Below, piece by piece: positions 14,801-20,800 of a stretch of 64,000 nt of DNA (position 1 is the first letter of the stretch; the number at the start of each line of letters is the position of its first letter). The position numbers and the translations under genes were made by a program. A model generated the notes under the pieces. The model was not told where the DNA came from and ran no database searches. It saw only the letters and a list, made by a program, of their open reading frames with translations. The stretch comes from Schmidtea polychroa (taxonomy: Eukaryota): assembly GCA_044892525.1 (NCBI GenBank), contig CM097885.1, positions 36,024,001 to 36,088,000 on the forward strand. The letters are read 5' to 3'.

Positions 14801-17800
14801 TTCTGTTTAATTATTACACAATATCCATTTAAGTTAAAGTTTAAACTGTTTATTATTACATAATATTCATATACAATAAAGTTTCTAAAATTCCTCAAGT
14901 TGTTTTTGAAACATAGATTGGTTAATCAATTGAAGAATTGTAAAAATATAATAAAATATAATAAAATATAATGCAGTATTATATGTGCAGAATCCGGTAC
15001 TTCCGTGTTATCTTACGCCCAAAAATTAAATTAAAAAAGAACACATAATTATTATATTTATTTTCTAAATCACAGTTACAAACTCAGCAAACGATTGTAA
15101 AAAGTTTGTAAATGGTCATCCAGGTGGCCAGAAAACCACAATGTCGTTGAGAATGGTGTCGAACACATCGGCACTGTTACTTAGAACACGTTTGCGCCAC
15201 ATAAACTCACATAATCACATAAATCACAGATAGCCTTAATAAATTCATGTTCAAGAATGTTCAATAATGTCATCAATAATGTATTCTCTCATTTTTTATA
15301 TTGTTATTTTAATTGTATTTTATAATTTAATTTTTGGGGGTAAGATAACACGGAAGTAGACAGAATCCTTGAAAAAATTAAAGGAATATTTTAAACAAAA
15401 ACAGTTTGATTCAAAAGCATTTAAAGGTATAAAATTCATAAGAAAAGCGATCGGAATTATTGAGTCTTTTAGTTTAAAAATAAATTGTTTAATTTTTTTG
15501 CAAAAAAATACAGTAATTATTTGTTTTGTATCGTAATTTTTAAATAAAACTAGTTATACTTTACCCTTTTCAAATTCGCCAAAAAAATTAATTATCAAAT
15601 TTCTCGAATTATAGAGACTTTACTGTATTTGCGATATTTGACTTGTTCAATACTCACTAATTACCTCCTTTGACACATCCTTAGTCTATTTATTTAAACG
15701 TGGACAAATTTGATTGATTAATTGTTTTTATGGTTTAAAATGTATACTAAACTTAGAAATTGTTTGTAATTCTATGAAAGCTAAATATTAATGGATGAAG
15801 TCTTATTGAAGTAGTGGACAAAGGCGTGATCAGACGTGTAGTTAAATAAAAAGAAATTCTAAAGGAAAACAGATCAAAGTTGAAAGATACGATAAACAAT
15901 TTTACTGAAATGAAGTTAGGAAAAGTAATCAATAAAGTAACAAGTCGGCAATTCAAGATGCCTTACGTAGAGCTTGACCGATTGCACTTTTTCCCAATTG
16001 TCGATGGTACTAGTTGTTCACAAATTAATTTTTTTTATTACTGATTTGTTTATTTTTGCGTGTGTTCATGTTTCATACCGTTTCAATGCTAGTCACTGAT
16101 GACATGTATGTGTAGACTATGTACAGACTACAAACGAGAAGTTTCAACAATAAAAAATGAACAAATTTTTTTGGACATAAATAATAACATAAAATTAATA
16201 TATTTGTTGTAACTGGACTTTATATTTTGTTGTCTAATCAGAATAATGCTGAATTCAGAGAGTATTCTGAATTCCTGATCTTTAACAGTCGGTGCCTGAT
16301 GGGTGGCCAATTGCCAATTGTTCCGATTGTCCTAATAATCAACCTAATAATTGTCCTAATAATAAATGTTACCGATTAATTGGTTAAACTCTAGCTCTAT
16401 GAATACCAGGTTATCAACCTGCTAATCAAAATTCAATAAGGATATATTATAATGTAATTCCTTATGAATAGAATCAACTGGACAGTAGATGGATTGGGCA
16501 CCGCTGGCACAGGGCACCGCTAGCACAGTACCCCCCCTCCCCCCCGTCGGTAAGATTTTCAAAAATATTCTAAGTCTAAAAGTACATTTTTTTTCAAGGT
16601 CAAATTTAAACAAAGACATATGACTCATCAAGGTCATTTAAACAAAGACCATGACTCATCAAGGTCATTTTCAAGGTCATATGACTCATACTATGACTCA
16701 TCAAGGTCAAAAAATTTTCTCAATGTCATTTAAACAAAGACCATGACTCATCAAGGTCATTTCCAAGGTCATATGACTCATAATATGACTCATCAAGGTC
16801 ATTGAAACAAAGGCCATGACTCATAATATGACTCATCAAGGTCATTCTCAAGGTCATATGACTCATAATATGACTCCTCAAGGTCATATGACTCATCCGA
16901 TGACTCATCAAAATTTTCAAGGTCATTTTCAAGGTCATATGAGTCATCGCGATGACTCATCAAGGTCATATTATTATTTTTAAAAAATATTATTATTTTT
17001 ATTATTATTTTTTCAAAATATTATTAAGTGTGCTAGCGGTGCCCTACTATTTGGCATGCCAAAAGTTATCGTTCCCATCATTTTATTTCATCGTTCGATA
17101 GCTTGTTTTGAAGCTTGGTGCAAGACCTTTCGAATGAGTTATAATGGTCATCACCATCATTAATATTGGCAAAGTTATTAACATTTTCCCGAGACCATTT
17201 TCAAGGTCATTTGACTATTTTATTATTATTTTTTAAAATATTATTTTTTTTTCAAGGTCAAAATTTTTTTCAAGGTCATTTATTTTTTCAAGGTCAAATT
17301 TCTTTCAAGGTCAAATTTTTTTTCAAGGTCAAATTTTTTTTCAAGGTCATATTTTAAAATTTAAATTTACAGAGTTCCCGCCAACGAACATTATTCAACG
17401 ATAGCTCATTTGAAAGCCCAATCCAGGACCTTTCGAATGAGCCACATATATCTCATTATTAAGATTATTATTATTATTATTATTATTATTATTATTATTA
17501 TTATTATTATTATTATTATTATTATTATTAATATTATTATTATTATTATTATTATTATTATTATTATTATTATTAATATTATTATTATTATTGTTATTAT
17601 TATTATTATTATTATTATTATTATTATTATTATTATTATTGTTATTATTATTATTATTATTATTATTATTATTATTATTATTATTATTATTGTTATTATT
17701 ATTATTATTATTATTATTATTATTATTATTAGTATTAATCTATATACTCCGAGTCTATCCGACAAAAATATTCTGTCCCCCTATGGGTAATGCTCACAAG

Positions 17801-20800
17801 GGTACTGCTCACGCTCAATAACTCGCATTCGATTATTTTATTATTATTCGATTATTATATTATTATTTTTCAAAATATTATTATTTTCAAGGTCATATTA
17901 TTATTTTTCAAAATATTATTATTTTCAAGGTCATATTATTATTTTTCAAAATATTATTATTTTCAAGGTCATATTATTATTTTTCAAAATATTATTATTT
18001 TCAAGGTCATATTATTATTTTTCAAAATATTATTATTTTCAAGGTCATATTATTATTTTTCAAAATATTATTATTTTCAAGGTCATATTATTATTTTTCA
18101 AAATAATAATATGACCTTGAAAATAATAATATTTTGAAAAATAATAATATAATAATCGAATAATAATAAAATAATCGAATGCGAGTTATTGAGCGTGAGC
18201 AGTACCCTTGTGAGCATTACCCATAGGGGGACAGAATATTTTTGTCGGATAGACTCGGAGTATATAGATTAATACTAATAATAATAATAATAATAATAAT
18301 AATAATAATAATAATAATAATAATAATAATAATAATAATAATAATAATAATAACAATAATAATAATAATAATATAATAATAATAATAATAACAATAATAA
18401 TAATAATATTAATAATAATAATAATAATAATAATAATAATAATAATAATAATAATATTAATAATAATAATAATAATAATAATAATAATAATAATAATAAT
18501 AATAATAATAATAATAATAATAATAATCTTAATAATGAGATATATATGGCTCATTCGAAAGGTCCTGGATTGGGCTTTCAAATGAGCTATCGTTGAATAA
18601 TGTTCGTTGGCGGGAACTCTGTAAATTTAAATTTTAAAATATGACCTTGAAAAAAAATTTGACCTTGAAAAAAATTTGACCTTGAAAAAATAAATGACCT
18701 TGAAAAAAATTTTGACCTTGAAAAAAAAATAATATTTTAAAAAATAATAATAAAATAGTCAAATGACCTTGAAAATGGTCTCGGGAAAATGTTAATAACT
18801 TTGCCAATATTAATGATGGTGATGACCATTATAACTCATTCGAAAGGTCTTGCACCAAGCTTCAAAACAAGCTATCGAACGATGAAATAAAATGATGGGA
18901 ACGATAACTTTTGGCATGCCAAATAGTAGGGCACCGCTAGCACACTTAATAATATTTTGAAAAAATAATAATAAAAATAATAATATTTTTTAAAAATAAT
19001 AATATGACCTTGATGAGTCATCGCGATGACTCATATGACCTTGAAAATGACCTTGAAAATTTTGATGAGTCATCGGATGAGTCATATGACCTTGAGAATG
19101 ACCTTGATGAGTCATATTATGAGTCATTTGACCTTGAGAATGACCTTGATGAGTCATATTATGAGTCATGGCCTTTGTTTCAATGACCTTGATGAGTCAT
19201 ATTATGAGTCATATGACCTTGGAAATGACCTTGATGAGTCATGGTCTTTGTTTAAATGACCTTGAGGAAATTTTTTTGCCTTGATGAGGCATAGTATGAG
19301 GCATATGACCTTGAAAATGACCTTGATGAGTCATGGTCTTTGTTTAAATGACCTCGAGAAAATTTTTTGACCTTGATGAGTCATAGTATGAGTCATATGA
19401 CCTTGAAAATGACCTTGATGAGTCATATGATGAGTCATGGTCTTTGTTTAAATGACCTTGAAAAATTTGATGAGTCATGATATGAGTCATGGTCTTTGTT
19501 TCAATGACCTTGATGAGTCATATGTCTTTGTTTAAATTTGACCTTGAAAAAAAATGTACTTTTAGACTTAGAATATTTTTGAAAATCTTACCGACGGGGG
19601 GGGAGGGGGGGGTACTGTGCTAGCGGTGTCCTGTGCCAGCGGTGCCCAATCCATCTACTCTGGACTTCATTTCAAATGCTTTTTAGTATGTTTATATATT
19701 TCTCTTGCGTGCCGGGAAATAAATACACAATTATGGATATGTTATTTTTTTAAATACTCCAAAGAGTTTGTCACCAATTTAACGAAATAATAAATATTAA
19801 ACAAAATCTTGATTTTTTACTATTCGAAATTTTTTTTAAAGAAATTTGTCTTGGATAAAAATGAAGGTGTATAAAAATTGTAAAACGGGAATCTTAAATT
19901 AAAATTATAAAAGAAATCAAAAGATCAAAATGTGCATTTTTATATTAAATTAATTTAAATTCATAAATATTGAATTATTCGCTGTACCCTCGAAGAGCTC
20001 GAAGGTTATATAGGAAGTTGTGTTACGCAGTCCAAGAAGCAGTACTGTAAGCAATGCTTAGAATAAACGAAAATTTTTAGTATACAAGTATAACAATAAA
20101 ATTATATAAAAAATAAAATTAAAAAAAATCAATTTTGTCAATTATTTCACCTAAATATTTCTAAACAAACCAGTGAAAATTTTCATAAATATATATTTTA
20201 TGCCACATTCTTAATCAATATGTTTAGATTATTTTTTAAACACGTTTATGTATTTCATATCATTTTTAATATTCTTTAGCAATTCTATTTGTTTTAAAAT
20301 TCTCTAAAAATAGATATTAAATTTTATTTACACTTTTTGCATTTAAACTTTTATTATCTTTTAAGTCTCACAATTTCCACTATTTTCTAGCAAAACTCTT
20401 CAAATAATATTCATTATTAAACTGCGTTCCAAAGATTTAATTTTATTTTACGTGTTATATATATATATATACACTAGAGCCTCGAGTTGCGTTGTCCCAA
20501 CTTGCGTCCTTTCGAGTTGCGCCAAAAAAATTTTCGATACCCTAATTTTGAGTTGCGTTGCTAATTTTCGAAATGCGTCGAAAAAAAGTTTTAAAATAAA
20601 ATTTAATCAAAAAATAGCATAACGTCTATATTCAAAAATTAAACTTTAAACCGAAACTAGAATGCCATGATTTATTTTTAAATGCAGCTGCAAATGAAAT
20701 AATTTTTTATTGTGTATTTATTAGTATAAAAGTCTAGTTCTTAGTTGTTTGCATAACTTATAACTTATAACGTTTAAGTGTTTCTTGTTTTTTTAATAAT

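Follow-up and report, generated by a model that had tools for sequence, protein, structure and literature searches.

A 64,000-nt stretch of the Schmidtea polychroa genome (contig CM097885.1; hereafter the window, in whose numbering the element and its features are given) contains a gene-less element of 3,176 bp which consists entirely of one inverted repeat. Judged by its sequence, it is a non-autonomous derivative of Polintons (Mavericks), with the ends and the target site duplication (TSD) of helper copies residing in the same genome, but without their genes. It is best described as the outer 1.6 kb of a family of 17-18 kb gene-less palindromes, folded back inside an array of 38-bp tandem repeats. 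As to how this short form arose, we consider it probable that the Polinton polymerase switched templates on a gene-less copy and that the product was then integrated in trans.

A palindromic element with Polinton ends

The element begins with AGTAGATGG and finishes with CCATCTACT, i.e. it has AGTAG...CTACT ends, and it is bounded by two exact copies of the 6-bp TSD CTGGAC, beyond which the flanking sequences are unrelated. In these respects a preliminary description of the window, made from its letters, has been confirmed, as has its statement that there is no real open reading frame (ORF): the ten ATG ORFs of at least 50 aa in the element are all readings of the repeats, none of them encodes PolB or an integrase, and an Rfam search of the element returned no match. 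With the arms split at 18098-18099 (1,614 bp on the left, 1,560 bp on the right), their global alignment comprises 1,371 matches, 19 mismatches and 394 gap columns, with 6 mismatches and 5 gaps in the outer ~1 kb. There are 18 arm-arm difference events in the whole element, most of them private to it, so that the arms do not deserve to be called near-identical, as they had been. From the end to the centre, each arm is composed of a 125-bp terminus, an array of TCAAGGTCA and TGACTCA words, a 316-bp insert that opens with a reversed terminus-like word, a short unique stretch, an (ATT)n microsatellite, a second unique stretch and the 38-bp array.

According to the defining passages of two papers, Polintons are characterized by AG...CT ends and a 6-bp TSD, and the intact vertebrate members are 12.7-24.6 kb long, with repeats of 46-1,447 bp and the end motif AGTAGT (PMC8097293, PMC6431247). 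The exact terminal 24-mer of the window element occurs 637+668 = 1,305 times in the 781-Mb genome, and a reversed control sequence does not occur at all. Thirty-seven stretches adjoining the strongest terminal matches were compared: a common set of Polinton ORFs is present in 25, ten are gene-less, and two consist of termini in a tandem array. In this set are genes for an rve integrase that also has a chromodomain, for an A32-like ATPase and for a protease of the adenovirus type, together with a TBP-like gene. The large ORF of the coding copies (1,130/1,271 aa) is assigned to PolB through its homologues, which have the DNA_pol_B_2 domain (PF03175, 547 hits), Pfam giving no PolB call on the ORF itself. 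A 426-aa frame is a candidate for the capsid protein: it scores 0.97 against a cluster of double jelly-roll type, 15% of whose members have PF21738, which makes it a lead only, and a PDB search with it found no match. The longer coding relatives anticipated in the preliminary description have thus been identified with respect to PolB, integrase, ATPase and protease, while the capsid is a lead. Intact coding copies are 17.7-19.7 kb long with terminal repeats of ~1.3 kb, and their termini are 98-100% identical to the terminal 125 bp of the window element. One of the TBP-like genes (L042:4415-4873, minus strand) was recognized by Pfam with E 1.5e-15.

Both ends were recovered for 32 elements, which were picked from the searches and are not a random sample (four of the 24 regions in one fetch, lacking one or both termini, were omitted). 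The set comprises the window copy, five coding copies, three gene-bearing fold-backs, one palindrome of 23.8 kb and 22 copies that lack the set of Polinton genes. The TSD is 6 bp long in 30 of the 32, and the other two have none. Measured against an autonomous Polinton, the window element possesses no PolB, integrase, capsid, ATPase or protease gene, and it has 3,176 bp in place of 12-25 kb; it can only have moved in trans, as had been proposed, with helper copies present in the same genome.

We consider it very improbable that the element is unconnected with Polintons and belongs to the foldbacks of some cut-and-paste superfamily (Mutator, Galileo/FB-like), although its arms, with tandem repeats nested within one another, are reminiscent of classical foldback elements. 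Foldbacks of the Mutator or Galileo type have a TSD of 7-11 bp and a partner with a DDE transposase. In the family studied here the termini are shared with coding Polintons, no TSD of a length other than 6 bp was encountered, and the gene-less copies yielded no transposase ORF. The assignment of the ends and TSD to Polintons has thus been upheld, and of the signs that had been named as arguing against it, namely family TSDs of another length or a DDE superfamily, none was found among the copies analysed.

The nearest relatives of the window copy are gene-less. Thirteen of the 22 gene-less copies are 16.9-18.4 kb long, with arms of ~8 kb, while the remaining nine (7.2-14.1 kb) have lopsided centres; a 724-bp centre common to seven fetched gene-less copies indicates that the same form is present at several sites. 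Other palindromic copies with different 6-bp TSDs, for which a search had been proposed, have been found. None of the eight copies based on the coding Polinton has a single unit of the 38-bp array, which 21 of the 22 long gene-less copies contain, and the 316-bp insert occurs in the gene-less family and not in the coding copies examined. Since both belong to the gene-less family, the window copy derives from that family. The preliminary description had envisaged a copy-back of one Polinton end with the loss of all genes; copy-back does take place in this family, but the parent was already devoid of genes.

The term "gene-less" may not apply to every copy of the family. About 4.3-5.5 kb from the end, the 17-18 kb copies contain a ~730-bp stretch with 87% similarity to that part of the coding element in which its 163-aa ORF lies, and one 13.6-kb copy has 163-aa frames in mirror image in both arms. 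A satellite-type palindrome of 23.8 kb (C2:122874592-122898347) has an identical 956-aa ORF in both arms (DNA_pol_B_2, E 4e-31), and this PolB differs from that of the 19.5-kb copies. Head-to-tail arrays of family pieces have also been seen (C1:242.74-242.76 Mb and C1:168.32-168.36 Mb), with units of ~2.2 kb (terminus and flank) and of 0.4-1 kb (the stretch adjoining the 38-bp array).

Origin of the short form

The axis of the hairpin had been placed in a 2-nt spacer at 18098-18099. These letters are indeed present, but they represent only one register of the 38-bp array, which has six GGTC units on the left arm and one on the right: pairing of the arms from the outside inward halts at a loop of 192 nt, closed by TATTTT and AAAATA. 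Folding of positions 17800-18210 favours the same register, and the fold of the centre has z = -25.6, none of 100 shuffled sequences being equally stable. A short stem with a loop of this kind fits copy-back, in which one end is mirrored by way of a short inverted match.

In the reading we favour, replication would start at the terminus, with machinery supplied in trans by coding copies. On a long gene-less template the strand-displacing polymerase would jump to the displaced strand at the 38-bp array: at the seventh unit the nascent 3' end ...TTTTTCAAAATA would pair with TATTTT located 192 nt behind the fork, and synthesis would then return to a terminus, producing a 3.2-kb molecule with two good ends, which the Polinton integrase would insert, leaving the 6-bp TSD. 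Were the jump to the displaced strand always to span the same distance behind the fork, independent products would have equal loops of 192 nt. If the template were the self-paired single strand of a long palindrome (Kapitonov and Jurka in 2006 reportedly described such a self-paired intermediate for Polintons), the arms would inherit the differences between the two arms of the parent, which fits the window copy; on a duplex template they would be identical at birth. Subgenomic molecules of 1-8 kb, which accumulate in phi29, are ascribed to template switching (PMC4974454).

Identical arms have been found in a second short hairpin (C4:58429368-58433007; 3,640 bp, TSD CACATC, differing flanks), which belongs to a sub-lineage without the 316-bp insert and is folded in the same 38-bp array. 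Its arms align with 1,658 matches and 0 mismatches, gaps being confined to the tandem arrays, and among 33 elements it alone has outer arms with neither mismatches nor gaps. In the window copy and the C4 hairpin alike, the longer arm bears the same 3' donor end and the loop measures exactly 192 nt, while the half-units on which the two copies land differ. Given 14 and 23 possible loop sizes, with shared sizes in 10 of 322 pairings, the chance of such agreement is ~3%, a post hoc figure for two cases.

Three fold-backs that retain genes have been identified as well. In C1:24976661-24988590 (11.9 kb, TSD GACCTA) the PolB side is mirrored, in C1:29602228-29617439 (15.2 kb, TSD ATCATT) the ATPase/integrase side is, and C1:1346303-1363396 (17.1 kb, a long panhandle for which no TSD was found) follows an intact copy as far as position 14,683 and comes back from 4,810. 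Plain deletion within an element with terminal repeats of ~1.3 kb cannot yield gene regions duplicated in mirror image, and these three elements thus demonstrate that copy-back occurs in this Polinton family. Together with the identical arms of the C4 hairpin and the shared donor end and loop, this is why we favour the template switch.

The chief alternative, which we regard as unlikely though deserving serious attention, is that a full 17-18 kb gene-less palindrome was inserted and later, already in the chromosome, lost its centre when slippage or repair bridged the two inverted 38-bp arrays at their 6-bp match, AAAATA. Within chromosomes, palindromes of great length are unstable, and lopsided centres are found elsewhere in the family, including one in a 7.2-kb copy (C1:151370031) with its breakpoint in the same array. 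Loss of the centre predicts the same junction sequence as a template switch, so the window copy by itself cannot discriminate between the two routes. It would also account for arms that differ as much as those of the long copies: the outer arms of the latter have 4-52 mismatches and 1-23 gaps, and the k-mer Jaccard index between arms is 0.56 in the window copy and 0.15-0.88 in the long copies. The single-copy junction of the window element is likewise in its favour. On the other hand, it requires an additional step of arm conversion for the C4 hairpin, whose mismatch-free arms are found in one of 33 elements, and explains neither the donor end and 192-nt loop common to both short copies nor the gene-bearing mirror copies; the insertion site, moreover, looks young, leaving less time for the loss.

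The ancestry of the arms is neutral in this respect. No other element assigns the left and right arms of the window copy to separate lineages. Two variants are exclusive to both of its arms, but the long copies also share arm-only variants in a similar manner, so such sharing does not separate copy-back from loss of the centre. In three intact copies (C4:21658419, C1:209083404 and C3:92741027) the two terminal repeats share 0, 3 and 9 private 25-mers, and most palindromic copies share dozens; copying from arm to arm seems to be more frequent in palindromes than in these three.

We consider it improbable that the centre is an artefact of sequencing or assembly, in which a strand-displacing polymerase jumped across the stem of a long palindrome at the array. 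The window centre is known from the assembly alone, a jump across the stem would leave intact the flanks on either side, the TSD and the differences between the arms, and the geometry common to both short copies could be a technical signature. However, the same assembly contains many full-length copies, including the 13 of 16.9-18.4 kb, and the C4 hairpin combines identical arms with two distinct flanks and a TSD, a combination that such a jump would not yield from a typical parent. Besides, in an independent run the insertion site branches at exactly 16483.

Several observations weigh against the template switch we favour. The arms of the window copy resemble each other no more closely than do the arms of long copies and give no pointer to a fresh copy-back, there are only two short cases and their agreement in loop length may be due to chance, and deletion explains equally well the nine gene-less copies of 7-14 kb with lopsided centres. 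In searches for array-flip junctions, that of the window was found once in the genome and that of the C4 hairpin likewise at no second site, so that mobility of the short form is unsupported. The description of the element as a foldback parasite of Polintons therefore holds as regards its non-autonomous nature, but not as regards spreading. Searches for the axis with a gap of 0-30 returned the window copy and one degenerate match (C2:121637176) and missed the C4 hairpin, which was found by a separate search; with gaps of 31-60 only the window copy and the C4 hairpin were returned. The degenerate match was dropped as a candidate short hairpin, there being no terminus within 10 kb on either side. 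A looser flip search yielded 654 places and was uninformative, as nearly all of the 50 listed are small palindromes built into the sub-terminal array. Among the first 100 termini listed there are 34 facing pairs less than 60 kb apart, all of them at least 10 kb except the window copy. The short forms have not multiplied and appear to be a dead end.

Extending the argument, we put forward only tentatively, and with less confidence than the template switch itself, the idea that Polintons in this genome repeatedly make integration-competent snap-back defective genomes, the quasi-palindromic 38-bp array of the satellite acting as a built-in turning point at which the polymerase jumps 192 nt behind the fork.

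Features of the window and the insertion site

Coordinates of the element, its parts and the first coding stretch of the host gene in the window
Feature	Position	Strand	Remarks
Whole element, single inverted repeat	16484..19659	.	3,176 bp
Left TSD, CTGGAC	16478..16483	.	exact
Right TSD, CTGGAC	19660..19665	.	exact
Left Polinton terminus (AGTAGATGG..., 16-bp repeat, poly-C tract)	16484..16608	+	98-100% identity in coding and gene-less copies
Right Polinton terminus	19533..19659	-	
Left sub-terminal array, TCAAGGTCA and TGACTCA words	16594..16972	+	part of the family terminal repeat; highly variable among copies
Right sub-terminal array	19001..19547	-	longer than left by 156+12 bp
316-bp insert, left arm	17028..17343	+	in gene-less copies; not in coding copies examined
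316-bp insert, right arm	18648..18945	-	18 bp shorter than left
(ATT)n microsatellite, left arm	17455..17737	+	present too in terminal repeat of coding copies
(ATT)n microsatellite, right arm	18270..18536	-	
38-bp tandem array	17857..18105	+	Tandem Repeats Finder (TRF): 6.7 units; specific to gene-less family; every unit a quasi-palindrome
192-nt unpaired centre, putative template-switch junction	17908..18099	.	closed by TATTTT (17902-17907) and AAAATA (18100-18105)
Right-arm remnant of 38-bp array	18100..18150	-	~1.3 units
First coding stretch of p190 RhoGAP-like host gene (context)	10781..11830 (end ~11830)	+	4.6 kb upstream of element; E 1e-64 against profile of five homologues

The element had been placed in intron 1 of a p190-like gene. 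The first coding stretch of this gene has been confirmed, and the position in the intron is plausible, the downstream support consisting of one weak match at 34583-34912 (E 0.03). The ORF at 21342-21836 was considered as exon 2 of the host gene and rejected, having no homology support.

The left flank was compared with contigs of four public runs (X1-X4) from two studies. In X1, X2 and X3, a contig of 2,108-2,600 letters tracks the flank to 16483 and then continues for ~1.8-2.3 kb that do not match the element; these contigs appear to represent the empty site. The X4 contig stops exactly at 16483, as expected for the branching of two alleles, and the assembly may have been made from X4. With the site apparently empty in three of the four runs, the insertion looks young and polymorphic, which agrees with the recent origin claimed for it, although one of the signs cited for it, near-identical arms, has not stood.

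Elsewhere in the window we observed a MITE-like element (miniature inverted-repeat transposable element) that lies between (TA)n runs and has short inverted ends (~20465-21290, 0.8 kb to the right of the insertion), an intron-less gene with four RRMs of the hnRNP L/PTB type (2653-4617, minus strand), a broken hAT-like transposase (57196-58902, plus strand) and a 600-bp inverted pair, 39 kb apart (12061-12671 and 51849-52584). Within the window, 51 of the 52 TCAAGGTCA words and 33 of the 36 TGACTCA words lie inside the element (16594-19547). These words match nuclear-receptor NR5A/ERR and AP-1 sites, respectively, and the sub-terminal array may serve as an enhancer.

Relation to known systems and biological meaning

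The window element shares with Polintons the AGTAG ends, the 6-bp TSD and a terminal repeat also found in intact copies of 17.7-19.7 kb in this genome, but unlike them it is 3.2 kb long and gene-less, and the inverted repeat is the entire element. It resembles copy-back or snap-back defective viral genomes and the subgenomic molecules of phi29 (PMC4974454) in the mirrored end, the short match at the junction and the protein-primed, strand-displacing polymerase of the helper. It differs from them in residing, flanked by a TSD, in the chromosome of an animal, in having a gene-less passenger and not the helper as its parent, and in being known here as an integrated copy alone. The Tlr1 elements, which have been termed non-autonomous polintons, and the transpovirons are likewise linear and helper-dependent with inverted ends, but the same source has them encoding proteins and not forming palindromes (PMC5499653). 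An anole survey reports no non-autonomous copies (PMC3014272). In a literature search that covered few subscription papers and neither Repbase nor supplements, no account of palindromic or gene-less fold-back Polintons was found, the one match in wording being to Tlr1 (PMC5499653).

Miniature inverted-repeat elements and foldback elements such as Tetris are also gene-less, consist mostly of inverted repeats with modular arms of tandem repeats and are moved in trans; the window element differs from them by the ends and TSD of a PolB/integrase element, and by a short form that has not multiplied.

Most of the surprise resides in the gene-less palindromic family, to which the window copy adds a recurring turning point. 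The short forms are single, whereas the 17-18 kb gene-less palindromes have spread, which points to a length requirement, possibly that of packaging. If our best reading holds, a molecule of about two terminal repeats was still inserted with a correct 6-bp TSD. The 1.4-kb stem in what is likely an intron of the host gene could in addition yield double-stranded RNA directed against the ends of the family.

The replication of Polintons is understood mostly by analogy to adenovirus and phi29. Integrated fold-backs with defined junctions provide a direct test of the replication model, namely of the proposition that strand-displacement intermediates switch templates, and of where they do so. If the array indeed acts as a turning point, the chromosomes would preserve fossil traces of the replication fork, and this for an element whose mode of replication is known chiefly through models.

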